Shown here in pieces: positions 17-20,431 of a stretch of DNA of 32,000 nt (the first letter of the stretch is position 1; the number at the start of each line of letters is the position of its first letter). This stretch comes from Prochlorococcus sp. MIT 0801. GTDB lineage: Bacteria; Cyanobacteriota; Cyanobacteriia; PCC-6307; Cyanobiaceae. The position numbers and the translations under genes are program-made. The stretch spans positions 1,320,001-1,352,000 of the forward strand of contig NZ_CP007754.1 in NCBI RefSeq assembly GCF_000757865.1. Reading direction: 5' to 3'. The notes below the pieces were generated by a model, which saw nothing but the letters and a program-made list of their open reading frames with translations, searched no databases and was not told where the DNA came from.

Positions 17-43
17 AGCTGCAATTAATTTGCAGCTTTTTTT
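17..43 (+). terminator. Rho-independent terminator candidate for a + strand gene lying left of the window
   Basis: Perfect 8-bp stem agctgcaa (17-24) / ttgcagct (30-37) with a 5-nt loop ttaat, running into a T-tract that ends at 43. Confidence 0.55.
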
Positions 44-135
44 GTGCGTTGAATAATAACTCATAAAAATATAGCCATACCAATGCATTAAAAGCAAAAT
101 CTTGGTTGGAGAATAAAGTTAAAGGATAGAAAGTT
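42..135. repeat. ychF-3'-end repeat, copy 1 (degenerate, core plus right arm)
   Basis: Positions 42-63 match the 22-nt ychF terminal core ctagacgttgaataaaaactcc at about 16/22. The next stretch, agccataccaatgcattaaaagcaaaatcttggttggagaataaagttaaag, aligns with the shared arm agtcatgccaatcgattacaagcaaaaatcgcggttagacttaagttagaag of copies 4 and 5. Confidence 0.5.
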
Positions 136-367
136 TTGCGAGATTGAAGCTCTCCTAAAAGTCAAATTGTCTTCGGAGAAAATCCCATTTCATTCCTTAA
201 TAAGCCAAAACCCCTGAATTTATCAAGCAAAATCATTAAGCAAAACCTGTTATTACAGTAAAAAGGCCTTTGTTTTCAGAGATGAATTATTTTCATTACA
301 AAAATTGGTTAGGAAAGCGTTTTTCCTAGCACTTCAGAGTGAGTCCATCAAATAATTTCTATACAAT

Positions 368-1216
368 TCAGATAATTTCAATATTCCAATGTAATTCACT
401 TTTCAAGTCAGGAGCACCAGTAAAACTTCCTCTTACTGGTGCTACAAGTTCAGACTTAGAAGAAGAGGCTAGGGTTATATATTTACTATTAATCAAACCA
501 CAACCGCTTGGATCAAATCCTCTCCATCCAAAACCAGGTATAAAAATCTCAGTCCATGCATGAAGTTCATATTTTTCTGGGGGTTGGTCCATAAATTGAT
601 ACCCGCTAACGAAACGACTAGGTATGCCAACGGATCGACAAGTCTCCATTAACAAAATTGCCAAATCCCTGCAAGAACCAACTCTCTCTCTAAGAGTTCT
701 TGCTGCAGTCCATGCAGGTCCAAGATGTCTAGGTGTATATGTAACCCTATCTTTTATTAGAGCGATTAATTTATATAAAAAGTCCAATACATTATTTTCG
801 ATCCCTACTAATGCCTCTTGAGCAATTTGAATTGCTGCTGGATCATGTTGTCCATTAAGCAACCAACCTTGAATAAATCCATTAAGTGAGCTATTTTCTG
901 CTTCTATTTTCATAGGTAAACTTAGGTCATTATCATTTTTTAATTTATATAAATCTGGATGAATCTGCGTCTCGATTTCACTTTCTGCCTTAATAAGAAG
1001 AGAATTAGTAGGATCTTTAAAAAACACCTTAAAAATATCATCTCCATTTTCAGAGATTAAAGGAAATATTAAATGAGGGTAAGGATTAATTTCAAGACTA
1101 AAATAATTTAACTTCTGGAAACCCCCAGACCTGGGTTTCATACAAATCAAATGCTCGCGAAGAGAGACGGGTTCTTCATAAGAATAAAATAGTTTGTGAA
1201 TTATTTTCTTTTTCAT
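368..1216 (-). CDS. Transglutaminase-like cysteine peptidase family protein
   Basis: 282-aa ORF with the Cys-His-Asp core of the transglutaminase-like superfamily (GSCRDLAILL, LHAWTEIFIPGFGW, GFDPS). ATG start. 4-nt overlap with the upstream alpha-E gene. Confidence 0.85.
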   Translation of the reverse strand: MKKKIIHKLFYSYEEPVSLREHLICMKPRSGGFQKLNYFSLEINPYPHLIFPLISENGDDIFKVFFKDPTNSLLIKAESEIETQIHPDLYKLKNDNDLSLPMKIEAENSSLNGFIQGWLLNGQHDPAAIQIAQEALVGIENNVLDFLYKLIALIKDRVTYTPRHLGPAWTAARTLRERVGSCRDLAILLMETCRSVGIPSRFVSGYQFMDQPPEKYELHAWTEIFIPGFGWRGFDPSGCGLINSKYITLASSSKSELVAPVRGSFTGAPDLKSELHWNIEII

Positions 1217-2187
1217 TCTTCTAAAGAATCAAAATCAAATCCCTTTTCATTTATAAAATAAAAGCTATGTATAAGATCATTTAATTTATTTAAGTCAATT
1301 TGAAGGCTATCAATAGCCTCATGTAAACCATTTTTAATTAAGTTATCTATTCTTACAAAACTCCATTTTGATAGTAATAAACCTATTAAACATTCTAGAT
1401 CATTTGGCTTCTGAGAAACAGGGGAATTTTGAATCTTACCTAAAGATTCTTTAATGCCCTCAAGACAAAATCTCACAGATCTGGGAAAAATAGGATCTAA
1501 TAGTAAAAAACTTGCAATTGCATTAGGAGTTATTGATCCTTGTTCAGATCTTCTAAACATTTGATAAGCTCCCGCTGAGCGTAATAAAGAAATCCATTGC
1601 AGTTCATCTAAGGCTCCTCCAAGCTCATTTAGATTTGGTAAAAGCAAAAAATATTTCACATCTAATATTCTAGAAGTTTTATCCGCTCTCTCAATCAACC
1701 TTCCTAATTTACTAAAATGCCATGCAATATCATGACTAAAAGTAGCATCTGTAACTCCATAAAATAACTGGCAACTTCTTCTTATTTCAAATAATTGTTC
1801 TTGAGCAGGTTGATGCCATATGACCTCACCTTCCTGAATACTCCAAAATAAACTATTTATTTGTTCCCACATCTCAGAAGTGATAACATCTCTAATTTGG
1901 CGCGCATTTTCTCTTGCCATATAAATGCAACTAACAATGCTATTTAGATTCTCTCTATCTTTAATAAGAAAACTTATTACATCACTTGAAGTTTTATTCT
2001 TATAACTCTTATCGAATTCGTTTCTATCACCACTAGCATCTATTAAAGGCAACCAGGGTTCTGCACTACCAGGCGGACAGTCTAGAGCCATAGACTCGCT
2101 AACTTCAACAAATCTAGAAATATTTTCAGCACGTTCTAAATATCTATTAATCCAATAAAGTGATTCAGCAACTCTACTAAGTAACAT
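1213..2187 (-). CDS. Alpha-E domain protein (DUF403 family)
   Basis: 324-aa ORF. The N-terminal LSRVAESLYWINRYLERAENISRF is the typical alpha-E signature. It sits between a circularly permuted ATP-grasp gene and a transglutaminase-like gene, which is the conserved three-gene arrangement. Confidence 0.85.
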   Translation of the reverse strand: MLLSRVAESLYWINRYLERAENISRFVEVSESMALDCPPGSAEPWLPLIDASGDRNEFDKSYKNKTSSDVISFLIKDRENLNSIVSCIYMARENARQIRDVITSEMWEQINSLFWSIQEGEVIWHQPAQEQLFEIRRSCQLFYGVTDATFSHDIAWHFSKLGRLIERADKTSRILDVKYFLLLPNLNELGGALDELQWISLLRSAGAYQMFRRSEQGSITPNAIASFLLLDPIFPRSVRFCLEGIKESLGKIQNSPVSQKPNDLECLIGLLLSKWSFVRIDNLIKNGLHEAIDSLQIDLNKLNDLIHSFYFINEKGFDFDSLEE

Positions 2188-2192
2188 TTATA

Positions 2193-3626
2193 CTATTGGA
2201 TTACCACCCAAGTGTCTTTACACCCTCCACCTTGAGAAGAATTAACGATCAAAGAATCACGTTTTAAAGCGACCCTTGTTAGGCCTCCAGGACTTACCCA
2301 AGTATTCTTTCCTCTAAGAATATATGGTCTTAAATCAACATGACATGGGTATACTTCACCATCACTTAGTGATGGGACCGTAGACAAATCTAGAGTTGGT
2401 TGAGCTATATAATTTCTTGGATTAGCTTTGATTTTAGCTGAAAATTTATCAATATCTATTTGAGAAGAATGTGGACCTATTAACATTCCATATCCGCCTG
2501 CTTCAGAAACGCTTTTAACAACTAGGTAACGGAGGTTCTTAATTACATAATCAAGATCTTTTTCCCTTGCACATACATATGTTTTAACATTATTTATTAT
2601 TGGCTCCTCTTTTAAATAATATCTAATCATATCTGGTACAAAAGTATAAATTAATTTATCATCTGCTAATCCTGTACCAGGAGCATTTGCGACAGCCACT
2701 CTACCCTTACTCATCACATCAAGAAGACCTGGGACTCCAAGCATTGAGTCTTTTCTAAAGAATTTAGGATCTAAAAAATCATCATCTATTCGACGATAAA
2801 TAACATCAATTTTTTTTATCCCTGAGGTGGTTCTCAAATAAACATTATCATTCTGACAAACTAAATCACTTCCTTCAACTAATTGAACTCCCATCTGTTG
2901 AGCCAAATAACTATGCTCAAAATATGCACTATTAAAAACTCCAGGAGTCAATAAAACAACTTTTGGATTATCAGTCCAAACTGCCAATTCCTGAAGTGAT
3001 TTCAATAAATATGATGGGTAATCATCAATAGGTCTAACAATCCTGCCAGCAAAAAGGCTAGGAAAAATTCTTTTCATAACTAATCTATTCTCCAAGAAAT
3101 ATGCAACTCCTGAAGGGCACCGAAGATTGTCCTCTAGAACGAGCCAGTCTCCTTTTCCATCTCTAATTAAATCTAAGCCAGACACATGGCACCATTTCCC
3201 TAATGGCAACACAAATCCCTGCATTTGTGGCCGCCAACCATCAGAACTCTCTATAAATTCTATTGGGATAATCCGATCTTTTATTATTTGCTGTTTGCCA
3301 TAAACATCAGATAAAAATAAATCTATCGCTTCAAGTCTCTGTACAAGTCCTCTTTCTAGCTCTAACCATTCAGAGGCACCAATTACTCTCGGCAAAGGAT
3401 CAAAAGGAAGAATCCTTTCAGAACCTTTGTTACCGGAGTCGTTAAGACGAAAAGTTGCTCCATGACGTAGAAGTAATTTTCTAGCAATTTCATGACTTAC
3501 ATTTAACTGATCTAAACCTATCTTTTTTAAAGATGAAAGAAGAGGCTCAAGGGATTTTCTAGGAGAAAAATCTTCAGAAGAAAAATATTCATCATATCCC
3601 TTTTTAGGTTGATAATCTGTAAACAT
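2193..3626 (-). CDS. Circularly permuted ATP-grasp type 2 protein (DUF404/DUF407 family amidoligase-like)
   Basis: Long ORF with family-level resemblance over its full length. It ends 5 nt before the alpha-E start. I prefer the ATG at 3626 (MFTDYQPKK...), preceded 4 nt upstream by GGAGGT (complement of 3631-3636), over the track's TTG at 3638. Confidence 0.85.
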   Translation of the reverse strand: MFTDYQPKKGYDEYFSSEDFSPRKSLEPLLSSLKKIGLDQLNVSHEIARKLLLRHGATFRLNDSGNKGSERILPFDPLPRVIGASEWLELERGLVQRLEAIDLFLSDVYGKQQIIKDRIIPIEFIESSDGWRPQMQGFVLPLGKWCHVSGLDLIRDGKGDWLVLEDNLRCPSGVAYFLENRLVMKRIFPSLFAGRIVRPIDDYPSYLLKSLQELAVWTDNPKVVLLTPGVFNSAYFEHSYLAQQMGVQLVEGSDLVCQNDNVYLRTTSGIKKIDVIYRRIDDDFLDPKFFRKDSMLGVPGLLDVMSKGRVAVANAPGTGLADDKLIYTFVPDMIRYYLKEEPIINNVKTYVCAREKDLDYVIKNLRYLVVKSVSEAGGYGMLIGPHSSQIDIDKFSAKIKANPRNYIAQPTLDLSTVPSLSDGEVYPCHVDLRPYILRGKNTWVSPGGLTRVALKRDSLIVNSSQGGGCKDTWVVIQ

Positions 3627-3855
3627 ATCAACCTCCAATTAGTTAATTAAATATGAATCAAGCCAGCAATTATTCAGGTAGCTAAAAATACAAAAAAGAA
3701 TTTAAATATCTCTAATTAATGATTTAAGTATATTTAAGTACAGTTCTTGCATGATCTTCCTTTATTTCCTCAAGGATCTGAAGCATTGATCGAACTAAAG
3801 GTTATGCATGTTTAGAGAGAAAATAACTAAAAAAGATTTCTAAAATAATTCGAAG

Positions 3856-3990
3856 GTTAGGATAGAATCTTATTAAGAAAGCTGAGAAACCTTGATCTAA
3901 ATATCCCACTATACGTTAAATAAAAACGCCAGCACGTCAATTGATATCAATTGCTTAAGAGCAAAAATCGCGGTTAAACGAAAGTTAGAG
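3856..3990. repeat. ychF-3'-end repeat, copy 2 (left arm, core, right arm)
   Basis: 3909-3930 ctatacgttaaataaaaacgcc matches the ychF terminal 22-mer at 19/22. The left part gttaggatagaatcttattaagaaagctgagaaaccttg parallels copy 5 gttagattagaagcttattgagaatactgagaatccttg. The right arm gcaaaaatcgcggttaaacgaaagttagag parallels copies 4 and 5. Confidence 0.75.
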
Positions 3991-4033
3991 CAATTCAAAG
4001 AGACATAATTGAGAAGATATATCCATGATTAAT

Positions 4034-4192
4034 TCACTCAAAGAATTCTTTACTCATCTCTAGGCTAAAAACACAAATCAGAATATCATGCAGTCGAGCT
4101 ACATTTTTTGCAAAATTCAGAACGACAAAAGTTTTCCACATTGCTGGTCTTCCTGCAACAATAATTAAGTCACTTCTTTTGTGGACCTTAGC
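4034..4192 (-). pseudogene. DnaB-like replicative helicase fragment (decayed)
   Basis: A 52-codon open stretch bounded by stops translates to [52 protein letters not shown]. This carries the DnaB-family Walker A block (consensus ARPxMGKT, here with Gly replaced by Trp), the ALNIAxNVA-like helix and the FSLEMS motif. The upstream sequence to about 4250 has only vague similarity, broken by stops and a frameshift. The fragment is far too short for a functional helicase. Confidence 0.7.
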
Positions 4193-4260
4193 TCAGTTTT
4201 TTATTTTTTAAATTACTGATTTCCAAATCCACAATCAGATTCTTCGTTAGTTATCAGACA

Positions 4261-5373
4261 ATGAAAATAGTTTTTTTTGATCCTGTTCATTGGGACTATA
4301 GTCCTGTTACACCATACCAAAAGCCTTTAGGAGGTACACAATCGGCTGTATGTTATTTGTCAACAGCTCTCTCAGAATTAGGACATCAAGTATATCTTAT
4401 CAACAATATTAGCAATTCCAAAGAGATAAATGGTGTTAATTGCCTAAATGTTCGAAGTAATGATGAATATTTAAAAGAGATTATTAATAGTTCTGATATT
4501 TGTATAGTTATTGCTCTTCCATCTTTAGTAAATGGACTTAAATCTCTATTTACTGGTAAAGTTAAATTCTTTCTTTGGTGTCAGCATTCCTACAATCAGC
4601 CAGTACTAGAAAGTCTTTATTCGAGTGAAGTAAAGAAATCATGGGATGGATATATTTTTGTTAGTAATTGGCAAAGGGATAAATTTTGTTCTGTATTCGC
4701 TTTAGAAAAAAACAAGACTTTTATACTTAGAAATGCTATATCCCCTCTGATTTATAATTTATTTGATAAAAAAGAATCTATTTCTAAATCAAAAAAATTA
4801 GAAGATACTATTTTTTATAGTAGTACACCTTTTCGAGGTCTGGATATATTAATTGATGTATTTCCTTCTATAAAAAAAAAATTACCTAAGGTTAAATTGA
4901 AAGTATTTTCCTGTTTAAAAACATATCAAATAGATAAAGATAATGATAATTATCTTTATCTTTATAAGCAATGTGAAGCAATGAATGGGGTCGAATACAT
5001 AGGATCTTTATCTCAGTCGGAACTGGCACCTCATTTAAAAAAAGCCAGTATATTAGCTTATCCTAATTCATTTGAAGAAACATCATGTATATCTGTCATG
5101 GAGGCACTAGCCAGTGGATGTGCTGTCGTAACAAGTGAGTTAGGTGCTCTTCCTGAAACAAGTTCAGGTTTTGCATCTTTAGTAAAAGGCAAACCAGGTT
5201 CAGATCAATATAAAAAAAATTTCATAGATGAAATAGATAAAACATATAAATTATTTAAAGGTGATGATTGTTTTTTAGATAGGAAATTAAGAAATCAAGT
5301 TGATTACTTTTTGTTAAATAATAATTGGGAAAGAAGAGCGCAAGAATTAATTGAAATAATACAGGATTACTAA
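4261..5373 (+). CDS. Glycosyltransferase, GT-B fold (family 1/4-like)
   Basis: 370-aa ORF with an ATG start. C-terminal retaining-GT motif EETSCISVMEALASGCAVVTSELGALPE (E-x7-E). Confidence 0.8.
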   Translation: MKIVFFDPVHWDYSPVTPYQKPLGGTQSAVCYLSTALSELGHQVYLINNISNSKEINGVNCLNVRSNDEYLKEIINSSDICIVIALPSLVNGLKSLFTGKVKFFLWCQHSYNQPVLESLYSSEVKKSWDGYIFVSNWQRDKFCSVFALEKNKTFILRNAISPLIYNLFDKKESISKSKKLEDTIFYSSTPFRGLDILIDVFPSIKKKLPKVKLKVFSCLKTYQIDKDNDNYLYLYKQCEAMNGVEYIGSLSQSELAPHLKKASILAYPNSFEETSCISVMEALASGCAVVTSELGALPETSSGFASLVKGKPGSDQYKKNFIDEIDKTYKLFKGDDCFLDRKLRNQVDYFLLNNNWERRAQELIEIIQDY

Positions 5374-5739
5374 TATCATTTATGGTTAAATTAGAGGGGG
5401 TTATTCTAACTTATTTTTCTTATTAGTTATATTTTATCCTGTCATGTAGATTCCAATATTCCCATAGGTTAAATTAAATAATGAACTTTTTCATCCTTCG
5501 ACTATTAATTTTCTAAAAGCCATCAGAAACTTAAATTAAAATCTAAAGGTTTTTTTTTATCGGTCTTATATGATTTCTTAATTTTACTTCTTTAAATATA
5601 AGCCACTTTATTATCTCAAATATCAATTTTCTGGTTTCAAAAATAAAAACACTTCATTCAAGGAGGCTATATTTAGTGCAAATTTTATTATATAAAAAAC
5701 AAATTATCTTTTATATTGATATTTTTGATTTATTTATAT

Positions 5740-6405
5740 TTAACTAATAAAACGTTTATGAATATTATTTATTGCAATCATAAGTTTCATTGTTGAGGAT
5801 GATATGCCGTGGGTTTGAACTATCTCATTAAAACCTTTTCTTAGCATTGAGAGGGTTTCTCGATCTTCGTTATCTGCAATTTGACTTTCTATCCATCCAA
5901 CACAAACCATCCTCTCTCCTTCTATAACTTCTTTTACTTCATGCAGATATTTAGTAGGATAAATAATCATTTCACCTGCATTAAGTTTTATATTCTTCTT
6001 TTCAGGAGGGATGTTAAGTACTAACTCCCCGCCCTTATATTCATCTGGTTGATTTAGGAAAATTGTGAAAGAAAGATCTCTCCTTCCTTCTCCTCCATAT
6101 TGATATATTGCATCAACATGAGGTTTATAATACATTCCTGGTCCAGTCCTTGAGAATAAAAGACCAAATATTTTAGAAGGGAAAACCTCAAATTGTAAAA
6201 AATCATCTTTTATGAACGCCTCAATTATCTCATTTGAAAAGTTTTCATGTGATTCTCCTGGAGCAAGTTCCAAATTTCTCTTTGTTTCCTTAGCATTACC
6301 TAAAGCTGAATAAATACCATCTTGCCAATCACTTGAAATTAATAATCTCTTTCTCAAATCTTTATGAGTTTCATCATTTAGAAACTTATGTGCAAAATAA
6401 ATCAT
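5740..6405 (-). CDS. PKHD-type Fe(II)/2-oxoglutarate-dependent hydroxylase (YbiX/PiuC family)
   Basis: 221-aa ORF colinear with E. coli YbiX-type proteins. H-x-D in YKPHVDA, distal His in KYLHEV, GGELVL block, C-terminal helical tail. Confidence 0.85.
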   Translation of the reverse strand: MIYFAHKFLNDETHKDLRKRLLISSDWQDGIYSALGNAKETKRNLELAPGESHENFSNEIIEAFIKDDFLQFEVFPSKIFGLLFSRTGPGMYYKPHVDAIYQYGGEGRRDLSFTIFLNQPDEYKGGELVLNIPPEKKNIKLNAGEMIIYPTKYLHEVKEVIEGERMVCVGWIESQIADNEDRETLSMLRKGFNEIVQTHGISSSTMKLMIAINNIHKRFIS

Positions 6406-6452
6406 TTTATTTTAAAACTGAATGATAATTAACAAATTTAACTTATTAATAG

Positions 6453-7247
6453 TTATATCTTAAGTATTAATTGAATACGTGTTTTCTCACCTTGATAAAC
6501 ATGATTAGTAGGATCTTTTTCTATTGCCTTTTTAATCTGAAAAAGTGCTTCTTGGTATTTGTTATTTTTCGAAAGTAATATACTAAGATGGTAATGAGCT
6601 TGTACTAGATTTGGATTAATTTCTATAGATTTTCTCATGTAATTATCAGCTTCATCTATTTTACCTAGATCTTTCAGTACTATTCCAAGATTAAAATAAG
6701 CTATTACTAAATCAGAGTCAAGACTAATAGCCTTGCGAAATGATAATTCTGACTCTTCTAACTGACCAAGATCTTTTAAAATCGCACCTAAATTAACATG
6801 CGAAATAGCTTCCATTGGATCAATATCGATAGCTTTAAGCGTATAAGTTTTAGCCTCTTCTAACTTACCAATTTCTCTTAAAATAGCTCCAAGATTAGTA
6901 TAAGAATTACTCGAATTAGATTCTAATTCAATAGCTCTTCTAGTCAATATTTCAGCTTTCCTTAAATTACCAAGCTCTTTTAAAATTATTCCGTAATTAT
7001 AAAATATTTTTTGATCGGTGAAGCCTTTATCTAGAAGATCCTGATAACATTTTGCAGCTTCCTCTATTTTACTTTCTGAATACAATTTAACTGCATTGTT
7101 AATTAATTGCTCTTTAGAAAATTTATCAGAGGAATTTGTATTAATAGTAAGATTTTCTTGGATTTCTTCTAAATTAAATGGAACTGAGAATATATTTTCT
7201 CCAATGACTTCCTTTTTTCTTTGCTCCTTGTCACCTATCTTATCCAT
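6453..7247 (-). CDS. TPR repeat protein
   Basis: 264-aa ORF with about six consecutive 34-residue repeats following the TPR pattern (e.g. AISHVNLGAILKDLGQLEESELSFRKAISLDSDL, VIAYFNLGIVLKDLGKIDEADNYMRKSIEINPNL). No other recognisable domain. Confidence 0.85.
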   Translation of the reverse strand: MDKIGDKEQRKKEVIGENIFSVPFNLEEIQENLTINTNSSDKFSKEQLINNAVKLYSESKIEEAAKCYQDLLDKGFTDQKIFYNYGIILKELGNLRKAEILTRRAIELESNSSNSYTNLGAILREIGKLEEAKTYTLKAIDIDPMEAISHVNLGAILKDLGQLEESELSFRKAISLDSDLVIAYFNLGIVLKDLGKIDEADNYMRKSIEINPNLVQAHYHLSILLSKNNKYQEALFQIKKAIEKDPTNHVYQGEKTRIQLILKI

Positions 7248-7446
7248 ATCAAGTTACGAATAATCTATTAAAACCTAATTATGTGAATTTTATACCTGGT
7301 CCAATGTGATTTGGTTGTGTATGACAATAAATAAAGACTTAAAGTCTCTAATAGCTCCTTAACTATCCATACTCTTATAGATTAGTTAAAAGATAGCCAG
7401 AGCTAAGAAAAATACTAAATAAACATCTATATAGAACATTAAATGA

Positions 7447-7556
7447 TTGATATGACAAGCTTTTTATACGTTGAATAGGAACCCAATACAGACTAGTAAT
7501 ACCAATAGATTTTAAGCAAAATTCAGTGTTAGACCTGTACAACAAAATGTTAGACC
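7447..7556. repeat. ychF-3'-end repeat, copy 3 (degenerate)
   Basis: ttgatatgacaagctttttatacg aligns with ttggtatgactaactttctagacg (19/24). 7464-7485 matches the ychF 22-mer at about 16/22. The arm ccaatagattttaagcaaaattcagtgttagacc parallels ccaatcgattacaagcaaaaatcgcggttagac. GTTAGAC occurs at 7528-7534 and 7549-7555. Confidence 0.65.
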
Positions 7557-7634
7557 ATTTTTGAGACATGCAAGAACGTATAGATCTTCTCTTAACGCGA
7601 GAGACAAAAGTATTTTGTTTAGAAAATTCTTTCC

Positions 7635-9506
7635 TTATCCGAAGCCCGTCATCTCAGTGAAGAGTGCTTTGTTCTCAGCTGACTCTGCAAACCCTAAAAG
7701 AACTTCATGTCTCTGCTCAATGTCGTTACTCAGATTTCCTACCCAGTAGTCGTATCCACTCTGATCTAGTTCTCTATTCAAAACATTTATATATAGTGTT
7801 TTCACATACTGATTATCAGAAATATTCTCTCCATAACGCAATTTAAATTCATCACTCACCAAAAATGAAGAGGAAACAGTCCTAATATCATTCGCTCCTG
7901 AACTAAATTGATCAATCCAATACTTGAGTCCACTACTATCAGGGAAACGTCTAAAAGCGGCATTATATAACCGAAACATTCTCCCAGAATCTGTATTTAA
8001 ACCAGTAACTTGATCAAAAACACCTTTCACATCATCAATTAAATCTAATTTTTTATCAGTAAATTGCAAGGCAAATGACTCAAGATCATTGGAATTAATG
8101 ATATCTTTTTCTGAGAAATATTTTTTTTGTACTAATTGGCCAGTTATTTCATCAAAGTTATTCTTTGGTAATATTTCATAGTTATTATCTCCTTTGTTTA
8201 TAAAGTTATAATTCAGACTTGATCCTCTAAACTGCTTATTATTCTTATTAGTATTACTCGATATTATTGTCTCATCTATTGAGATAGTATCGGTATCAGA
8301 TTGATATCCAGATACTCCTTCATGGTTATCTTTGTATATTTCCTCAAGTCTATAACTTTCCGGCTTAGTTATCACTTTAGTTATATAATTAGTATAAAGA
8401 TCATATCCTAGTGGATTAGCTTCTTTTATACTATCTGAAGTTAGATAGTTATCACTCCACTCACCATCCAAGCTTCCATCTTGGGTATATTTTGTTATGT
8501 AACCCCACATAGAATAAGTAAGGCAAAAAAGATACTCTCTCATAACCATTGACTTATATAAATCACTATATATCTCATGATTATCACCTTTGAATTTGAT
8601 ATAATCCTTATCGTTATAAACCCCATTATCAATTGCCTCTTTTGCCGCATCCCAAAGCATTCCTTTACCTTCAATCAAGTTAAATTGTGAAGGAAAAGCT
8701 CCGGGCAAAGCAAAGTCTGTAAAAGTATGAAGTAAATGCTCTAATTGTTGTGTTATTTGATTTCTTTGAATTGGTGAGTCATTAAGCTTCCATATGAAAT
8801 CAACTGAATTATATAAGTTATTAATTTCATCATAACCCTTAGGCGCATCGTTTAAACTGGGATTTTGATATGCACCAAAGGTATTAATACCAACCCTCTG
8901 AATAGTACTTTTTGATTTCATATATTTGATAGCATTCTCTTGTGCTTGTTTATCTATTAACTCACCACTAGGATTCATCATTAACTTAACAGTTTCTGCA
9001 GTTTTCTTTATAAATTCATCATCCACTGCAGGCATTCTGCTAAACGAGCCTAAACAAAATATTCTTAAGCCATATACATCTATGTATTTTGACCATACAC
9101 CAAATGTTTCATTCGTTGAGACAACATCTCCACTTACATAAGAGCTATTAATTTTCTGCAAAGAATTTCCCATAAAGGCATGATTTTTGCATTGATAAAA
9201 CAACTTAATTGAAGTACTAGCAGGAAGAGTTATCTCTGTATAAGCTCCTTCAGAACCTGCAATACCATTATTAATTACATTGCTTTTGAAGGGAGTTAAT
9301 TTTTCTGAATCCTTATAAAATAATATTTGATGACCAAGATTACTAATGTCTGATTGATCAAATCTATAAGTAACATCTGAAAGTAAGTTTAGGCGTGGAG
9401 ACTCTATTCCATTAATAAAATAGCCTTTTGCAGAACCTTTATCGCTATAGATATGATTGCTTGTCTTGACGTTTACAGTTACTACTTTATTGACTACTTT
9501 TGGCAT
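7635..9506 (-). CDS. Large hypothetical protein: cupredoxin-like N-terminal module, unknown central region, two C-terminal DUF4214-type repeats
   Basis: 623-aa ORF with an ATG start. The C-terminus has two DUF4214-like units (RLYNAAFRRFPDSSGLKYWIDQF...SDEF and YVKTLYINVLNRELDQSGYDYWVGNL...SAENKALF). The N-terminus has H59...C106-x2-H109-x2-M112 in plastocyanin/amicyanin-like sequence contexts. No obvious signal peptide. Confidence 0.75.
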   Translation of the reverse strand: MPKVVNKVVTVNVKTSNHIYSDKGSAKGYFINGIESPRLNLLSDVTYRFDQSDISNLGHQILFYKDSEKLTPFKSNVINNGIAGSEGAYTEITLPASTSIKLFYQCKNHAFMGNSLQKINSSYVSGDVVSTNETFGVWSKYIDVYGLRIFCLGSFSRMPAVDDEFIKKTAETVKLMMNPSGELIDKQAQENAIKYMKSKSTIQRVGINTFGAYQNPSLNDAPKGYDEINNLYNSVDFIWKLNDSPIQRNQITQQLEHLLHTFTDFALPGAFPSQFNLIEGKGMLWDAAKEAIDNGVYNDKDYIKFKGDNHEIYSDLYKSMVMREYLFCLTYSMWGYITKYTQDGSLDGEWSDNYLTSDSIKEANPLGYDLYTNYITKVITKPESYRLEEIYKDNHEGVSGYQSDTDTISIDETIISSNTNKNNKQFRGSSLNYNFINKGDNNYEILPKNNFDEITGQLVQKKYFSEKDIINSNDLESFALQFTDKKLDLIDDVKGVFDQVTGLNTDSGRMFRLYNAAFRRFPDSSGLKYWIDQFSSGANDIRTVSSSFLVSDEFKLRYGENISDNQYVKTLYINVLNRELDQSGYDYWVGNLSNDIEQRHEVLLGFAESAENKALFTEMTGFG

Positions 9507-9681
9507 TTAGAAATAAAAATTCATTATAGATTAGTTATCGAAATTTTGTGTTTGGTTATCATTTAGCGTTATTTCCTAATCAAAAAATTGTTTTAAGCAA
9601 AACATTAGGCAAAGCTGATCTTATCGAAGCTGGACTCTTAAAACCAGTCAGTCTCAAAACCCAAGGTTTCCTTCTCAAATA

Positions 9682-9835
9682 GTTAGACTAGACATTAGTC
9701 TAACTCGTGAAAACTGTTGGTATCACTAACTTTCTAGACGTTGAGCAAAAACTCCATCACGTCCAGTCATGCCAATCGATTACAAGCAAAAATCGCGGTT
9801 AGACTTAAGTTAGAAGAGAAGAATGAAGTTAGAAC
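9682..9835. repeat. ychF-3'-end repeat, copy 4 (full unit)
   Basis: 9734-9755 ctagacgttgagcaaaaactcc matches the ychF 22-mer at 20/22, and similarity continues to about 31 nt (ccatcacgtc versus ccataacgtc). The flank cgtgaaaactgttggtatcactaactttctag matches 12125-12156 at 26/32. The right arm has GTTAGA at 9798, 9809 and 9828. Confidence 0.85.
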
Positions 9836-9877
9836 AAATTCAGCTCTAATATCATGGACAATCATAAAAGCACATAA

Positions 9878-10588
9878 CTAATCAAAAACCTTATAAAACT
9901 CTTCCCAGTTTTGAGACCAAAAAGAATAAGAAGTAAATCCGCCTCTTAAAATGACAGCTCTATGATCAAGTAGCACTAACAAAAGTGAGGAAAAGAATAA
10001 ACATTTATGTCCAAGCTCAATGACAAATTTATATAGCGGTAGTTTTTGCTTGCGCAAACTTTTTAACAGCATCGACTCATACAAAACATGCTTTTTTTCC
10101 TCTTCAATTATTTTCAAGCAAATATTCTTTAACAACTTACTCTGCGTGGCTTTAGACAGAGCGTCGTAATAGGTTAAGGCAATGATTTCAGCAGTTATGA
10201 GAACTGTAATTGACAATTCATAACCAGCCAGGCTTCTAATTGATCTAAATAAGTTGTCTGTCCAATGTTTTTCTAGGATTGCAATATTATTGGAGTCCAT
10301 AAAGCGTTTTAAAATATAAGAATGAGCCTGCTCTTCTCTAATAAAAAGATTAGTTATTTTTTTAATTGTTTTATCTTTATACCTTTGAGCGTAATTCTCA
10401 CAAAAATCTATTAATTTTTTTCCTTCTGAATACTCTCCTAGCTGAAACTTAGCAATAGAGATTGAGATACACTCTTTTTCTTCTTTTGATAAAAAGTGAT
10501 TATCACTCCATGTTATCTTCTGAAAATTACCTTCATTATGTAAAAAGTATTTTTTCCATTCATCAAGATCAGGAAGCTTTGCAATCAA
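9878..10588 (-). CDS. Ferritin-like di-iron carboxylate family protein (function unknown)
   Basis: 236-aa ORF with the four-helix ligand pattern E...ExxH...E...ExxH (QLGEYSEG, REEQAH, ITAEIIA, EEEKKH). The track start is TTG and there is no in-frame ATG near the N-terminus, so the start is uncertain. Confidence 0.65.
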   Translation of the reverse strand: MIAKLPDLDEWKKYFLHNEGNFQKITWSDNHFLSKEEKECISISIAKFQLGEYSEGKKLIDFCENYAQRYKDKTIKKITNLFIREEQAHSYILKRFMDSNNIAILEKHWTDNLFRSIRSLAGYELSITVLITAEIIALTYYDALSKATQSKLLKNICLKIIEEEKKHVLYESMLLKSLRKQKLPLYKFVIELGHKCLFFSSLLLVLLDHRAVILRGGFTSYSFWSQNWEEFYKVFD

Positions 10589-10697
10589 AATCTACTAACA
10601 AGTAATTTTTTATAACTTGAAAAAACTATTTTGTAATCTTGAGAGGTCAAAGTCCTGACAAAACTAAACCATTTGGAAGCAGCATATTAATACAAAC

Positions 10698-10852
10698 GTT
10701 AGATTAGAAGCTTATTGAGAATACTGAGAATCCTTGGTATGAATGAATTTCTAGACGTTGAATAAAAACTCCTTAGCATCCAGTGATGCCAATTGATTAC
10801 AAGTAAAAATCACGGTTAGACGTAAGTTAGAAGAGTAGAACGAAGTTAGAAC
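10698..10852. repeat. ychF-3'-end repeat, copy 5 (full unit, best preserved)
   Basis: 10751-10772 is identical (22/22) to 12153-12174, the ychF stop codon plus its last codons. 10724-10753 matches 12126-12155 at 26/30. The right arm has GTTAGA at 10815, 10826 and 10845. Confidence 0.9.
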
Positions 10853-10940
10853 GCAGCTACTAGGTCTCAATTCGGCGGAGATGGATGTTTTGATCTAGTT
10901 TTCTAAATAAACTATAAAAAACATAAGTTTATTGAGCCTT

Positions 10941-11963
10941 ATGCAAAGCTCAGGTCGATTACCACTAATCAATAAACTACTTAAGGGAAAAGAGGAAGGG
11001 TTTTCTCTGATTGAATTAGTGGTGGTCATTGCTGTTCTTTCTGCTTTATCCGCAATTGCGATTCCACAATTTACCTGTATTCAACGAAAAGCCAAAGCAT
11101 CTACAGCATTAGCTGCCATGAGACAAATACAAACTGAATGTGCTGTTAATACAACAAGTACAGGAAGCTCAGGTACCTTTTTGACAGGTAATCTCAACTC
11201 ATATCAAATCCAATCCGATGGATCTAACAGCTGTAGTGGTGTACAAAGTACAGGCGTTATTAGTGCTATACCTAATAATACGAGTCAATTGCCTACTTTC
11301 TTATTGGCGACTAATAATAATGTGTTGACGTTTAGTTTTAGAGGGCGAACAGGTACAAACTTCACAGATTGCTTGGGGGTGATTTGCGGCGATACCTCTG
11401 CTTTCAATATTGATATGAATACATTTGAAAATAGATTTAACCAAGCTGTTTCTGATGGAATCACATTGGAGAACAATTACTATCAAAGAGGTGATTCTAT
11501 ATATGTAATTGTCGAAGGTGATACCTGGGAAAAAGCTCTTGAAAACGCAAATAAACTTGGAGGAACATTAGCAACCATTAATGATGAAGAAGAAAATGAT
11601 TGGTTAGTAGATGAACTTTGGGGAAATGATAAGGCAAGTTCAAATCTGACCGATAAAGGAGGAGCAGTATGGCTGGGACAAAAATTGAACGATACTGGTA
11701 ATTATGTAAGCGTTGCAGGAGAGGAACAATTGTATAACTTCTGGGGACCTGGAGAATATACAGATGGTTTATCAAAAGGAGAAGAATATACAATCTTCAA
11801 TTTATATGAAGGGAATGATAGTCCAGGTAGAGATCCTGGAATGGTTAGCACGGTTGCCAATAGACAATTCAATACTCCAGAATTAATCGAAAGAGGTGGA
11901 ACTCACATTTTTTATGGACTTGCCGAAATCAAATTAAATGAAATCAATGATGTTCTTGATTAG
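10941..11963 (+). CDS. Type IV pilin-like protein with a C-terminal C-type-lectin-like domain (modular pilin)
   Basis: Prepilin leader ending in Gly, followed by FSLIELVVVIAVLSALSAIAIPQF (class III signal / N-methylation motif G|FxLxE). Cys-containing pilin globular part. The C-terminal ~160 aa match the CTLD pattern (TWEKALENANKLGGTLATINDEEENDWL...VWLGQ...YNFWGPGEY). I prefer the ATG at 10941 to the track's TTG at 10932. Confidence 0.8.
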   Translation: MQSSGRLPLINKLLKGKEEGFSLIELVVVIAVLSALSAIAIPQFTCIQRKAKASTALAAMRQIQTECAVNTTSTGSSGTFLTGNLNSYQIQSDGSNSCSGVQSTGVISAIPNNTSQLPTFLLATNNNVLTFSFRGRTGTNFTDCLGVICGDTSAFNIDMNTFENRFNQAVSDGITLENNYYQRGDSIYVIVEGDTWEKALENANKLGGTLATINDEEENDWLVDELWGNDKASSNLTDKGGAVWLGQKLNDTGNYVSVAGEEQLYNFWGPGEYTDGLSKGEEYTIFNLYEGNDSPGRDPGMVSTVANRQFNTPELIERGGTHIFYGLAEIKLNEINDVLD

Positions 11964-12016
11964 TTAATAATCCTTTAAAACAAAAAATAACAATCAATTA
12001 GGCTATTCGGCCAAAC

Positions 12017-12074
12017 CATGAGAAATCTCAAAGAGGACATTAATAAATTCTCCTCAACTTTTTAATTTCTCATG
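12017..12074. other. Long nested inverted repeat (hairpin) between the pilin gene and the ychF-proximal repeat
   Basis: Perfect 10-bp arms catgagaaat (12017-12026) / atttctcatg (12065-12074) enclose a second pair gagga (12033-12037) / tcctc (12051-12055). No T-tract follows on either strand. Confidence 0.5.
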
Positions 12075-12100
12075 CTAATAGAAAAGTATAGACTGCAAAA

Positions 12101-12183
12101 GCTAGAATAGCACCTCTTCTAACCCCTGAGAACCCTTGGTATGACTAACTTTCTAGACGTTGAATAAAAACTCCATAACGTCT
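12101..12183. repeat. ychF-3'-end repeat, copy 6: the genuine ychF terminus plus downstream flank (attR-like junction)
   Basis: Carries the left arm and core shared with copies 4 and 5 (ctgagaacccttggtatgactaactttctagacgttgaataaaaactccataacgtc). It then continues into real ychF coding sequence instead of the shared right arm. Confidence 0.85.
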
Positions 12184-13244
12184 CCTTCATTAACTACATA
12201 TTCTTTACCCTCACTTCTTAGCCACCCTTTATTTCGAGCTTCTACTAAAGATCCTGCTTCAAGTAGTTTTTTGTATGAGATTGTTTGAGCTCGAATAAAT
12301 CCCTTTTCAAAATCTGTATGTATTACCCCAGCTGCTTGAGGAGCTGTCATCCCATCAGAAATAGTCCAAGCTTTAGTTTCTTTTTCTCCAGTGGTGAAAT
12401 AAGTGCTTAAACCCAACAATCGATATGTAGCCTTAATAAGGCTGATTAAGCCTCCTTCTTCAACTCCCAAACCATTAAGGTAATCATCTCTTTCCTCCTC
12501 CCCCAATTCAATTAACTCAGCCTCAACTTGCGCTGAAATCTTCACACATTCAGAGCCTTCTTTCGTTGCCAGTGTATTTACTTCTTCTGAATAGGAATTA
12601 CCATTCGCAAGTTCATCTTCCCCAAGGTTAGTTGCATAAATAATTGGTTTTTCAGTTAATAAGCCTAATGGTTTAATTAATTTTTTTTCTTCATCAGTTA
12701 ATGAAACAGTCCTAACTGCGTTTTCATTCTCAAGTGCCTCGGTTAATTGTTCCAACACATCATCTTCTAACTTTGCTTCCTTATTAGTACTTATTTGTTT
12801 TTTTAAGCGAGCTCTACGTTTTTCTATCTGATTTAAATCAGATAACGCTAATTCTAAGTTTATTATCTCAATATCTCTTGATGGGTCTACTGATCCAGAA
12901 ACATGGATAACATCATCATCACTAAAGCACCTAATCACATGAACTATTGCATCCACCTCCCTTATATTTGCTAAAAATTTGTTACCCAGTCCCTCCCCTT
13001 TACTTGCTCCCTTAACAAGACCAGCAATATCAACAAACTCCATTCTCGTTGGAATAATTTGCTTACTATTACTAAGTTCTCCAAGCAAATTCAAGCGTTG
13101 ATCAGGTACAGAAACAGAGCCTACATTGGGTTCAATCGTACAAAAAGGAAAGTTGGCTGCTTGAGCTTGAGCATTCGCAACAAGAGCATTGAACAAAGTG
13201 GACTTTCCAACATTAGGGAGTCCAACAATTCCGGCCTTAAGCAT
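12153..13244 (-). CDS. ychF: Ribosome-binding ATPase YchF (Obg-family P-loop NTPase)
   Basis: 363 aa. N-terminal [22 protein letters not shown]1 motif, [11 protein letters not shown]3 motif, coiled-coil insert and C-terminal TGS-like domain. ATG start. Confidence 0.95.
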
Positions 13245-13410: not shown

Positions 13411-14484
13411 ATGATTTGGAAAAATTTGAAAAAGAAAAAAGTTATAGGCCTTATTGCTTTTTCGGTCTTAAGTGTTGGTGGAATTAGTTTTAAAATTTCA
13501 CAAGACAATGCATCGAACAAAGACATAAATCAATTCACTATTGCTGCTGAAAGCGGCAGTTTGCCTGGTTTAATAACAGCAAGTGGTGAATTAAAAGCAA
13601 ATAAAAGCGTAAATGTAAGCCCAAAAAGACAAGGAATCCTTGACGAAATTTTCGTAGAGGAAGGAGATCAGGTTAAGAAAGGTGATCTAATTGCGAAAAT
13701 GGATTTCGGAGATTTGGAATTTAGAATTGACGAGTTAAAAGCTAATTATGAGACTCAAAAAGCAAGCTTTAAAAGAAGGGAGATGCTTTTTAAAGAAGGG
13801 GCCATAAGTGCTGAAGAGTATGAAGAATATAAAAATAGATTTTTAAAAAGCAAAGCCAAATTCAAACAAATAGAAATCGAAGAAAATGACACAAGCATTA
13901 GAGCCCCATTCAGAGGAGTCATAACAAGCAGATACGCAGTCCCAGGCGCATTCGTAACTCCTACGACCTCTGCTTCTTCCACAAGGGAAGGTGGGGCCAC
14001 AAGTTCATCAATAGTCAGACTTTCTCAAGGTCTTGAAATAGTTGCGAAAGTTCCTGAGAGTGATATTGGAAGAATAAAAACAGGTCAAGAAGCACGTATC
14101 AGAGTAGATGCTTTTCCTGATAAGCGTTTTAAAGCAGTTGTTTCCAAAATCTCTCCAAGTGCAATCAAGAACAACAACGTAACTTCATTTGAAGTTACGT
14201 TGTTGTTGGACAATAGGCCCGAAGATTTACGCCTTGGCATGACATCTGATATCAACTTTCAAACTGGAGCGACCAAAATCAGCACGCTTATCCCAACAGT
14301 GGCAATTGTTACTGAAGAAGGTAGAACAGGGGTTCTAATAGTAGGCAATAACAATCAACCAGAATTTAAAAAAGTTGAATTAGGTACAAGCAGTGGCAGT
14401 AAGACTGCCATAATATCTGGATTAGAACCTGGAGAGAGAGTTTTTATTGATCTTCCTTCTTGGGCTAAAAAAAGAAAGAGTTAA
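13411..14484 (+). CDS. Efflux transporter periplasmic adaptor (HlyD/membrane-fusion protein family, DevB-like)
   Basis: 357 aa with an N-terminal membrane anchor (VIGLIAFSVLSVGGISF), lipoyl-like VKKGDLIAKMD, a coiled-coil segment and a beta-barrel region (IRAPFRGVITSR...). No cognate ABC or permease partner is adjacent. Confidence 0.8.
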   Translation: MIWKNLKKKKVIGLIAFSVLSVGGISFKISQDNASNKDINQFTIAAESGSLPGLITASGELKANKSVNVSPKRQGILDEIFVEEGDQVKKGDLIAKMDFGDLEFRIDELKANYETQKASFKRREMLFKEGAISAEEYEEYKNRFLKSKAKFKQIEIEENDTSIRAPFRGVITSRYAVPGAFVTPTTSASSTREGGATSSSIVRLSQGLEIVAKVPESDIGRIKTGQEARIRVDAFPDKRFKAVVSKISPSAIKNNNVTSFEVTLLLDNRPEDLRLGMTSDINFQTGATKISTLIPTVAIVTEEGRTGVLIVGNNNQPEFKKVELGTSSGSKTAIISGLEPGERVFIDLPSWAKKRKS

Positions 14485-14510
14485 TAGATTAATCACACTT
14501 CGACTGATTT

Positions 14511-17471: not shown

Positions 17472-17514
17472 TTGCTGACAAATTCAATAATTTCTCACAT
17501 TTTTATCTAAGAAA

Positions 17515-19017
17515 TTGTCCCTAAAATTCACAAACACCTTATCCAAAAAGAAAGAGGATTTTATTTCTATAAATCCTAATCAAGTTAAAATATATTGTTG
17601 TGGTGTAACTGTTTATGATCTTTGTCATCTTGGTCATGCAAGAAGTTATCTTAATTGGGATGTATTAAGACGGTTTTTAATTTGGAAAGGATTTGAAGTT
17701 AAATTTGTACAAAACTTCACTGATATTGATGACAAAATTATTAATCGAGCAAATAAAGAAGGATGTTCTACTGATGAATTAAGTGAAAGAAATATTAATG
17801 AATTCCACAAAGATATGGATACTCTTTCCATTCTTAGACCAACTAGCATGCCAAGAGCAACAAAATGCCTCCATCAAATTATTAATTTCATAAAAGAATT
17901 AGAACAAAAAAAAGTAGCTTATTCATCAAATGGTGATGTTTATTTTTCAGTAGATAAACATAAAAATTACGGGAAACTTAGTGGAAGAGAAATTGAGAAT
18001 CAGATAGATAATGCAGCCGGGAGATTAAAAACAAATCAAAAAGAAAGTAAAAAGAATTCGCTTGATTTTGCTCTCTGGAAAAAGTCCAACTCAGATGAGG
18101 TTAGTTACTCTTCACCTTGGGGAAATGGCAGGCCAGGTTGGCATATTGAGTGTTCAGCAATGGTTAAAGAAGAATTAGGAGAAAGTATTGATATTCACCT
18201 TGGCGGATCAGACCTTATATTTCCTCATCATGAGAATGAAATAGCTCAATCTGAAGCCTGTAATGGGAAAGAGTTAGCAAAATACTGGCTACACAATGGA
18301 ATGGTTAATGTGGGGGGTGAAAAAATGAGTAAATCTCTAGGGAATTTTACAACCATTAGGTCTTTATTAGATGAAGATATTTCACCTATGACTTTGAGAT
18401 TTTTTGTGTTACAAACTAATTACCGAAAGCCACTAGATTTTACTGAAGAAGCGCTAAAAGCTGCTTCAAAAGGGTGGGATAGATTAAATAATTGCCTGTC
18501 TTTTGGTTATATTTATAAAATTAAAGATCAAGTTAAAAACGAAATCAACCTGGATAATCCGATAAAAAGATCTGCCAACAGTAAACTTGATAAAGACTCA
18601 TTTAAATTATTATCAGACTTTGAAAACTATATGGATGACGACCTAAATACATCTGGAGCTTTATCTATACTTTTTGAATTGTCTCAACCTATTAAAAAAT
18701 GCCTAAATTTATTAAAAGGAAAAGATATCAGTGAAATTGACAAAGATCTTTTAAATGAAGTTTTTAATAAATGGGAACTACTCACTGAGTTAGCAGGAGT
18801 TCTGGGCTTAAAAGTAAATTTAAATCAAGAAAAACCAAAAAACAATCCTGAACTTGACACTAATAAAATTGAAGAACTTATAAAGAATAGATCCTTAGCA
18901 AAAGCTAATAAAGACTTTTTACTCGCTGATAAGATAAGAGCTGATTTGAAAAATATTGGAATTGATTTGATTGATAAACCTAAAGGGGTTACTGAATGGA
19001 AACAACTTTCAGATTAA
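17515..19017 (+). CDS. cysS: Cysteine--tRNA ligase
   Basis: 500 aa with a class I HIGH-type motif (CHLGHARSY) and KMSKS ([10 protein letters not shown]). The start codon at 17515 is TTG, so the start is less certain. Confidence 0.93.
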
Positions 19018-20339: not shown

Positions 20340-20431
20340 AATAAATCTCTATTAAAATCCAGAAGAAACTGGTAAATATATAACTGGGTTATACCTTTAA
20401 ATGGGAGACTGGTCATACTTGACTTCACAAT

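Follow-up and report, generated by a model that had tools for sequence, protein, structure and literature searches.

Gene cassettes at the 3' end of ychF in clade LLI of Prochlorococcus: a polar array probably built by site-specific accretion

To our knowledge, Prochlorococcus lacks plasmids, conjugation and natural competence genes, and the upkeep of its large flexible gene pool is puzzling. The current account of this pool rests on elements that target tRNA genes. Tycheposons seed Prochlorococcus islands at seven tRNA/tmRNA genes, and these islands grow in a polar and additive manner (bioRxiv 10.1101/2020.12.28.424599); a 2024 paper still mentions seven tRNA genes. Additive flexible islands with repeats of the 3' end of tRNA-Lys have been described in Methylophilaceae (PMC10872708). 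Protein-coding genes may also serve as targets: in Streptococcus thermophilus, the 3' end of fda is a site of accretion for cis-mobilizable elements (CIMEs) related to ICESt1 (Pavlovic et al. 2004, as reviewed in PMC5704250). Here, we analyse an array of gene cassettes at the 3' end of ychF in a stretch of 32,000 nucleotides from Prochlorococcus sp. MIT 0801 (contig NZ_CP007754.1, positions 1,320,001 to 1,352,000), hereafter the window. We show the anatomy of the repeated units that delimit the cassettes, the polarity of the array, the polymorphism of cassettes exactly at unit boundaries across the population, the linkage between unit arms and cargo and the position of the exchange.

We think that this polar array was probably built by the site-specific accretion of cassettes bearing an attP-like site at the 3' end of ychF, under the action of a recombinase that is not linked to the array. 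A preliminary description of the window had proposed that elements with an attP mimicking the end of the gene integrated repeatedly, leaving P-O-P' junctions inside the array and a P-O-B' junction at the gene itself. The comparative tests presented below fit this proposal.

Anatomy and ends of the array

Six copies of the ychF 3' end partition the window between positions 42 and 12182. All are on the + strand and all lie on the 3' side of ychF, the anchor gene, which is intact and encodes a redox-regulated ATPase/GTPase (12153-13244, - strand; Pfam YchF-GTPase_C). The copies share a 22-mer, CTAGACGTTGAATAAAAACTCC, that reads, in reverse complement, as the end of ychF (...E F L F N V stop). This 22-mer is found without mismatches at 12153 and 10751, with two mismatches at 9734 and with three at 3909, for an expectation of 0 in shuffled sequences. 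The copies at 7464 and 42 match 16 of its 22 positions by direct count, which is weak taken alone. A profile of the whole unit (nhmmer) recovers both of them, with E=2.7e-9 and E=9.2e-6, respectively. The counts and the single orientation given in the preliminary description are thus confirmed, including the two weak copies.

The low similarity of copies 1 and 3 to the 22-mer (16/22) could suggest that we are dealing with a dispersed repeat, of the repetitive extragenic palindrome (REP) or miniature inverted-repeat transposable element (MITE) kind, or with chance similarity, in either case without a functional tie to ychF. This is refuted by the data and we give it practically no credence. Shuffled sequences provided no match, the actual end of the ychF reading frame is part of the repeat, and in the loci examined the units are confined to the interval between ychF and a convergent gene encoding 45 amino acids (aa). 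The units also lack a conserved fold and Rfam matches: RNAalifold identified no consensus helix in 25 diverse units (0.0 and -0.95 kcal/mol on the two strands), and three unit-rich contigs showed no Rfam match at E<=1 except for one chance snoRNA. The window itself contains no Rfam family at the gathering threshold and no tRNA or tmRNA gene (ARAGORN).

In the alignment, an internal unit spans ~155 nt. Its core O, of 30 nt, is made of the stop codon and the last nine codons of ychF; an arm of ~55 nt (P) lies to the left of the core and one of ~75 nt (P') to the right. Copies 2 to 5 are P-O-P', copy 6 is P-O and then runs into ychF, and copy 1 is O-P' only. Copy 2 (3854-4010, +) is a full unit that is somewhat decayed, with P at 3854-3908, O at 3909-3938 and P' at 3939-4010 (nhmmer 128 bits, E=2.3e-38). 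The two other full units are copy 4 (9679-9835, +; 152 bits), with P at 9679-9733 carrying a hairpin (AGTTAGACTA/TAGTCTAACT), O at 9734-9763 and P' at 9764-9835, and copy 5 (10696-10852, +; 148 bits), with P at 10696-10750, O at 10751-10780 (22/22 matches to the 22-mer) and P' at 10781-10852. Copy 3 (7404-7573, +) has a degenerate P arm, a core at 7464-7493 and a distinct P' arm (GTTAGACCtgTACAACAAAATGTTAGACC). Finally, copy 6 (12097-12182, +) is the proximal junction P-O-B', with P at 12097-12152 and a core (12153-12182) that is the genuine ychF end (stop and codons V N F L F E M V D); the profile matches it at positions 3-86 only.

The arms require some revision of the preliminary description. 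It had noted a sequence of ~30 nt downstream of ychF repeated in copies 2 to 6; the repeat is present in these copies, and its length is ~55 nt. It had also described one shared arm of ~75 nt, which is real and comes in two sequence types: type A in copies 2, 4 and 5 (decayed in copy 1) and type B in copy 3. Type B is also found in L001, L081 and L082 (L numbers designate the loci and contigs used for comparison). Both arms carry short repeats of the motif GTTAGA(A/C). The P arm has two or three of them, often as an inverted pair, and the P' arm has three in roughly helical phase. Within the window, the variant GTTAGAC is confined to the units.

The distal end of the array has a junction of another kind. 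Copy 1 (42-150, +) consists of a decayed core (42-71) followed by a decayed type-A P' arm, without a P arm, and the profile matches it at positions 58-144 only. On its left is the B arm, i.e. the rho-independent terminator hairpin (GAGCTGCAAttaatTTGCAGC and a T-run; 16-45, +; terminator scan) of the convergent 45-aa gene, which lies just left of the window. The same junction, where the terminator hairpin (GAGCTGCAA...TTGCAGC and a T-run) abuts the decayed core and then the decayed P', is found in the window and in L138, L122, L093, L153, L081 and L163. In the high-light (HL) clades, the terminator is immediately 3' of the ychF stop and there are no repeats. Given the distal terminator-core junction across strains and the position of the terminator in HL clades, we reconstruct the ancestral order as ychF stop, terminator, 45-aa gene. 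With this order, the 55-nt P arm is incoming DNA and O comprises no more than the final 30 nt of the gene.

Copy 1 is the old distal junction, B-O-P', that the integration model predicts, and it is found where expected, at the terminator. Hence, the array stops there. The preliminary description had suggested that it may continue leftwards, and this is not the case. The distal junction is decayed in all strains and the units near ychF are mostly well preserved, though decay does not strictly follow rank.

The 3' end of ychF is not unusually conserved overall. Its last 30 nt rank 51st of 355 windows, and third-position invariance is found only in the central six codons. At the start of the P' arm of copy 5, the ychF-sense strand (10773-10792, -) shows a short hairpin followed by a T-rich core (GGAGTTTTTATT), with a terminator-like score. 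Internal units might halt read-through from cassettes transcribed in the ychF-sense direction. A promoter scan of the array produced fewer matches than shuffled sequences and is uninformative.

Cassette polymorphism and position of the exchange

We ran the unit profile on the ychF loci of ten other genomes of the low-light clade LLI: L001, L081 (MIT1011, which belongs to this clade; PMC12675747), L082, L083, L153, L154, L160 (CP114781.1), L161, L166 and L167. The YchF protein of the window (whose G+C content is ~34%) has 95-96% amino-acid identity to those of the Prochlorococcus single amplified genome AG-402-K04 and of MIT 1011, and an identical YchF is encoded in one 5-kb contig, with the same pilin and ferritin-like neighbours. 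In the ten loci, units occur only between ychF and the convergent 45-aa gene, in one orientation, with different genes between them. There are no units in the remaining 20 kb of the window, in the flanks of the ten loci outside the ychF-to-45-aa-gene interval, or in the 20 kb of L152, a locus centred on the transglutaminase gene that does not extend to ychF. Homology between the window and L001 (85%) runs through the core genome and ends ~35 nt beyond the ychF stop.

The units also occur in metagenomes. A scan with the pattern core, 38-52 nt, GTTAGAC retrieved 60 marine contigs, all unit-bearing, with up to four units in 3.6 kb; 20 of them reach ychF, and the orientation of units is uniform within each of the 60. 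Among the loci examined, the array system is confined to clade LLI: repeats of the ychF end are absent from HL-clade loci, from one low-light locus outside LLI (81% identity in YchF) and from one Synechococcus locus. Searches among viruses were negative. Patterns of arm and core gave nothing in IMG/VR, or chance matches in coding DNA without a unit, and blastn searches of GenBank phages with the unit and with the core region revealed nothing relevant.

Comparisons between strains, which the preliminary description had recommended for the ychF neighbourhood, show that whole cassettes are gained or lost exactly at the boundaries of units. For example, MIT1011 has ychF, a cassette encoding a 93-aa protein and a cassette encoding M48 peptidases, while L128 and L129 have ychF followed directly by the M48 cassette; the additional 0.75 kb of MIT1011 is delimited exactly by the repeated P-O segment. 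Similarly, L001 has a ribbon-helix-helix-like cassette, a two-gene cassette, a metallophosphoesterase cassette and ychF, and L126 has the same arrangement without the middle cassette. One cassette can hold different ranks in different strains, L116 has three pilin-like cassettes in tandem, and at least 12 different cassettes were found directly beside ychF in different cells. At the loci examined, the unit is therefore not a dispersed repeat of the REP or MITE kind, and cassette content is polymorphic, the two points on which the preliminary description had made its interpretation depend.

The conservation of the units is concentrated in a few motifs. The best-conserved positions among 76 internal non-coding units are ACGTTGAATAAAAACTCC, GGTTAGAC and an 11-bp inverted repeat, TTGGTATGACT/AGTCATACCAA. 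In ACGTTGAATAAAAACTCC, an invariant block of 18 nt, and in the near-invariant GGTTAGAC, most columns are at least 90% identical to the consensus, above the surrounding arms. The inverted repeat brackets the core with a spacer of 37 bp, one half being in P and the other in P' (10733-10743 and 10782-10792 in the window). Beside ychF, only the P half exists.

We then used the sequence types of the arms to locate the exchange, with statistics that treat contigs as independent though some share ancestry, so that significance is overstated. Within the same unit, the types of P and P' are unlinked (p=0.41, n=58). Across the same cargo, in contrast, they are linked (p=2e-5, n=34); for instance, type-9 P pairs with type-B P' across cargo in 7/7 cases, involving several different cargos. 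Since arms are linked across cargo and not within the unit, they travel with the cargo and the units are chimeric. The core can be dissected in the same way. Its positions 1-4 are linked to the P arm (p=0.001, n=77) and its positions 23-26 to the P' arm (p=5e-8, V=0.78, n=65), but its left and right ends are unlinked (p=0.74, n=62). As the ends of the core follow their own arms and are mutually unlinked, the exchanges occur within the invariant 18 nt ACGTTGAATAAAAACTCC.

Strand exchange in a short common core predicts this pattern of linkage, which is hard to obtain by homologous recombination along a repeat of 155 nt. One could nevertheless envisage that one or a few founding integrations were followed by RecA-dependent exchange between the 155-nt units, by double crossovers with imported DNA and by unequal crossing-over, while gene conversion homogenised the units. 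Direct repeats with 80-95% identity are substrates for deletion or for replacement by imported DNA, and the lack of an identified recombinase also fits such a scenario. So do the abutting units of L163 and the remnants in L126 and L145, which resemble repeat-mediated deletions. L163, a Tara contig, has a near-empty locus (1780-2330) with ychF, three abutting units without cargo, the terminator and the 45-aa gene. The end of P' and the start of P share the motif AAAAAGTTAGA(C/A), and an empty distal cassette is also found in L122 and L093; the cargo-less units of these three contigs fit deletion between AAAAAGTTAGA(C/A) motifs.

Despite these observations, we find it quite improbable that RecA-dependent exchange between units accounts for the arrays. 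The exchanges are in a block of 18 nt and are not spread over the unit, and the minimal efficient substrate of RecA is usually quoted at ~25 nt or more, above this length. Furthermore, P and P' types reassort within units and are tightly linked across cargo. The peaks of conservation are also discrete motifs (the core, GGTTAGAC and the 11-bp inverted repeat), and not a uniform block.

Cargo, search for a recombinase and proposed mechanism

Clustering of the open reading frames located between units revealed more than 45 cargo clusters. The commonest families are those of DUF4214/RTX-type repeat proteins (22 members), of pilin-like proteins bearing an N-methylation motif (15) and of TPR proteins (9). 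Other cargo includes a trio with P-loop and metallophosphoesterase proteins, a pair of M48 peptidases, restriction-type nucleases (Z1, McrB-N/NucS), an extracytoplasmic function (ECF) sigma factor, a T2SSE ATPase, methyltransferases, glycosyltransferases and many orphans. A cargo protein of 189 aa looks ribbon-helix-helix-like by eye and has no database match. The length of cassettes, measured from core to core, has a median of 1.84 kb and ranges from 0.81 to 3.98 kb (n=46, in a sample biased by short contigs). L160 and L167 contain blocks of 6-7 kb.

Four cassettes of the window lie between copies 2 and 6. The one closest to ychF (10853-12096) encodes a pilin-like protein of 343 aa whose N terminus has a methylation motif (10932-11963, +; Pfam N_methyl) and which clusters with the second commonest cargo family. 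It is followed outward by a cassette (9836-10695) with a 236-aa ferritin/rubrerythrin-like protein (9878-10588, -; weak Pfam match), a 94% identical gene being present within a larger cassette in contig L107, and by a cassette (7574-9678) with a 623-aa DUF4214 repeat protein (7635-9506, -; Pfam), which clusters with the commonest family. The fourth (4011-7403) carries a relic of DnaB and, according to Pfam, a group-1 glycosyltransferase (4261-5373, +), a 2-oxoglutarate (2OG)-Fe(II) oxygenase (5740-6405, -) and a TPR protein (6453-7247, -). Inside the TPR gene, three direct repeats with a spacing of 102 nt (6651-6909) correspond to the TPR units and have no relation to the ychF repeats.

Between copies 1 and 2 there is an operon of transglutaminase, alpha-E and circularly permuted ATP-grasp genes (368-3638, -; Pfam). 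The preliminary description had counted it as the first cassette, an assignment that needs correction: in the LLI genomes L153, L154, L081 and L152, the operon is conserved on the far side of the 45-aa gene, outside the array. It is cassette-like, between two units, in the window and in the metagenome contig L118. In this region, homology to L153 (7066-10859) is limited to positions 352-3693 of the window, and the operon has 57% amino-acid identity to more distant Prochlorococcus-type homologues. Where it lies between units, it may be captured neighbouring host DNA. In MIT1011, a gene encoding a 360-aa Photo_RC protein (psbA-like by length) is located between the 45-aa gene and the ATP-grasp operon (L081 17171-18253). 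A similar gene is near the operon in CP114777.1 (L152 2065-3147), and there is none at that position in the window.

The DnaB relic had already been recognised in the preliminary description. It spans ~50 aa, from the Walker A motif to the SLEMS motif (4034-4190, -), adjoins the P' arm of copy 2, and is supported by its translation (PF03796 DnaB_C, E=1.4e-11) and by a six-frame scan (E=7.9e-10). Only one database match exists for it, at ~80% nucleotide identity: a short dnaB-like fragment borne by a 721-nt marine metagenome contig (L159) that is a palindromic assembly artefact. Tracing the relic through database matches reached no complete element. A larger block is found in L160, whose distal cassette of 6.9 kb (13800-20730) encodes a 534-aa HA-domain protein, a regulator with sigma-70 region 4, a 647-aa superfamily 2 (SF2) helicase and several orphans, among which one of 286 aa has no match in Pfam, PHROGs or PDB. 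This block resembles a replication/regulation module of a mobile element, with no recognisable integrase. No primase was seen.

Both the relic, which adjoins an arm, and the block of L160, which is element-like and has no integrase, argue for a graveyard of the CIME type. The cassettes would then be the remains of integrase-bearing elements, similar to tycheposons or phages, that integrated at ychF, lost their integrase and replication genes and became immobile; later changes would be deletions. Most Prochlorococcus islands are reported to have no intact element and to show scattered partial attachment sites (bioRxiv 10.1101/2020.12.28.424599), and CIMEs are known to accrete at the 3' end of a target gene (PMC5704250). 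We consider that such a graveyard is, on the whole, an unlikely explanation of the array. The 46 cassettes are short (median 1.8 kb, although short contigs bias the sample), and most are flanked by units that keep most of both arms, whereas random decay is expected to strip arms often and to leave fragments of integrases. Integrase genes normally adjoin an att arm, and no such fragments were found in 54 cargo representatives or in the intergenic DNA of the window. In addition, the core and GGTTAGAC are near-invariant in 76 non-coding copies, and the same cassette occupies differing ranks across strains.

The preliminary description saw no recombinase in view, and ours did not reveal any either. 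None is encoded in the open reading frames of the window (Pfam) or detectable in a six-frame scan of the intergenic DNA of the array, where the only match is the DnaB_C relic. The search was equally negative in the 54 cargo representatives (Pfam), in additional orphans (Pfam, PHROGs, NCBIfam), in the L160 block (Pfam) and in a PDB sequence search of its 286-aa orphan. We found no integrase in the genes called up to 10 kb from ychF in the ten LLI loci, nor in the 32-kb window (~12 kb and 19 kb on either side of the gene), nor in the whole set of 11 genome loci (the window and the ten others) and 60 contigs. Additional LLI genomes, reached through ychF variants, have more arrays and no integrase.

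The use of a host enzyme would explain the missing integrase. In this case, cassettes would be hitch-hikers that exploit a housekeeping recombinase of the chromosome, like the Xer-dependent integrative mobile elements (IMEX) and the pdif modules of Acinetobacter. The modular cassettes bounded by a conserved site, the lack of a recombinase in any array and the 11-bp inverted repeat TTGGTATGACT/AGTCATACCAA that flanks the core are in agreement with this idea. A dif-type site has two 11-bp arms that are 6-8 bp apart (28-30 bp in total). Yet, the inverted arms of the ychF unit are 37 bp apart, which departs from the Xer/dif geometry, and the 155-nt unit has phased arm repeats that are absent from Xer sites. 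The units are all direct, whereas pdif sites alternate. The locus lies at ~30-37% of the chromosome in complete genomes, assuming that the records start near the origin, and is thus not obviously at the terminus. Hence, the use of Xer or of a similar host recombinase seems very unlikely to us.

We return to the accretion of attP-bearing cassettes and propose the following mechanism. The mobile partner would be a family of cassettes, each with an attP of ~155-200 bp made of P, O and P'. A recombinase would swap strands inside ACGTTGAATAAAAACTCC of O. Integration would restore the end of ychF from the incoming DNA and displace the earlier copy of O, and all that is behind it, away from the gene, so that the newest cassette would be beside ychF. 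The original ychF end, fused to the terminator of the neighbouring gene, would now be at the far end, as copy 1. Because the internal junctions are all complete P-O-P', any two of them could recombine, and this would free at least one cassette as a circle with a single attP. The circle could then be lost, reinserted at ychF or transferred to another cell. The size of attP and the arm repeats suggest that the enzyme is a heterobivalent tyrosine integrase acting in trans, whose gene could be carried by a rare autonomous element or be located elsewhere in the genome; it probably binds the GTTAGAC arm repeats. The enzyme, the circular intermediates and present-day activity are what we infer.

A stronger version of this model would make of the locus an integron-like platform of LLI Prochlorococcus, in which cassettes of one to three genes are born with a complete attP and are individually inserted, excised and reshuffled by a dedicated recombinase encoded elsewhere. 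We put forward this version tentatively, since we see it as a real possibility that falls somewhat short of an even chance.

It is important to highlight the observations that weigh against the accretion of attP-bearing cassettes, or against it being the only process at work. In the DNA examined, we found no recombinase recognising the site, no complete element bearing an integrase, no circular junction and no truly empty attB. The core O has no visible canonical core-type inverted pair around an overlap of 6-8 bp. Cargo genes are found in either orientation, even for a single cargo family and a single arm type, and cassettes vary internally, e.g. the ferritin gene occurs with or without a neighbour encoding 357 aa; these two features imply that other processes act on cassettes too. 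The DnaB relic and the helicase/regulator block of L160 look like decayed larger elements. The abutting cargo-less units of L163 cannot derive from site-specific excision and point to deletion between arm repeats. The shared ancestry of some contigs, mentioned above, must be added to this list.

Comparison with known systems

The ychF locus makes the formation of islands testable, because its ancestral state can be reconstructed, its direction of growth can be read and the exchange can be placed within 18 bases. The unit is long and structured, and it is therefore unambiguous in short metagenome contigs. It can be used as a probe for the recombinase, for cassette circles in vesicle or virus fractions and for the turnover of cassettes in cultures and time series. 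The cargo, dominated by DUF4214/RTX-type, pilin-like and TPR proteins, glycosyltransferases and restriction-type nucleases, ties the mechanism to variation of the cell surface and of anti-phage functions. If the integron-like platform is confirmed, the most abundant phototroph would have a means of site-specific sampling of environmental genes for surface proteins, pilins and defence. Such a platform could occasionally capture neighbouring operons, as apparently happened with the ATP-grasp operon. A compact attP/attB pair at a housekeeping gene could also serve the development of genetic tools in Prochlorococcus, which is intractable.

The term integron-like, employed in the preliminary description, is adequate as an analogy. 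Like integrons, the ychF array has one chromosomal platform, tandem small cassettes, mostly of one to three genes, each with its own recombination site, an apparent newest-first order and a very diverse environmental pool of cassettes. Unlike them, it has no adjacent intI and no IntI was identified, it uses the end of a housekeeping gene for docking, and its sites are double-stranded attP-like units and not folding attC. The lack of a fold in the units rules out attC sites. Cassettes have no common orientation either, and cargo in both orientations means that there is no common promoter logic such as that of integrons.

The unit itself is reminiscent of lambda-type attP, with a length of 150-200 bp, a short motif on both arms and a central region shared with attB. 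It differs from lambda attP by the absence of an integrase, Xis or phage genes, by the lack of evident core-type inverted sites around a 7-bp overlap and by an identity block of 30 bp. The latter is explained by the restoration of the ychF end by the shared block, as in elements that target tRNA genes. The additive islands of Methylophilaceae resemble the array in that strain-specific blocks are bounded by direct repeats of the target's final bases. At ychF, however, the target is protein-coding, the repeats are far longer and the arms are structured.

The tycheposon islands are the closest biological precedent. They are found in the same organism, new DNA is added beside the target and pushes older DNA outward, and the islands contain scattered partial 3' ends of the target, most of them without an intact element. 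The anchor is different, since here it is ychF, and complete P-O-P' units of ~155 nt separate nearly all cassettes. Unlike in tycheposons, there is no tyrosine or serine recombinase beside the ychF attachment site, in the window or in related arrays. The text of the tycheposon preprint never mentions ychF and all the sites that it lists are tRNA/tmRNA genes. More generally, no paper tying ychF to a Prochlorococcus island was found in the literature searched, which included the tycheposon paper as a preprint.

The accretion of CIMEs is the closest mechanistic precedent. In both cases, a protein-coding gene is targeted at its 3' end, which the incoming DNA restores, successive elements integrate into the att site at the gene end, internal att sites are chimeric, and att sites are kept without an integrase. 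The differences concern scale and context. The ychF array has up to 5-6 members, mostly of one to three genes, and most of them show no trace of integration or transfer modules. It is also population-wide in a free-living marine cyanobacterium without conjugation, and no resident autonomous partner is seen. What differs at ychF is that the anchor encodes a protein, that arrays are restricted to clade LLI in the loci that we examined, that complete and structured attP-like junctions surround nearly all of the small cassettes, and that an integrase or a relic of one is consistently lacking.

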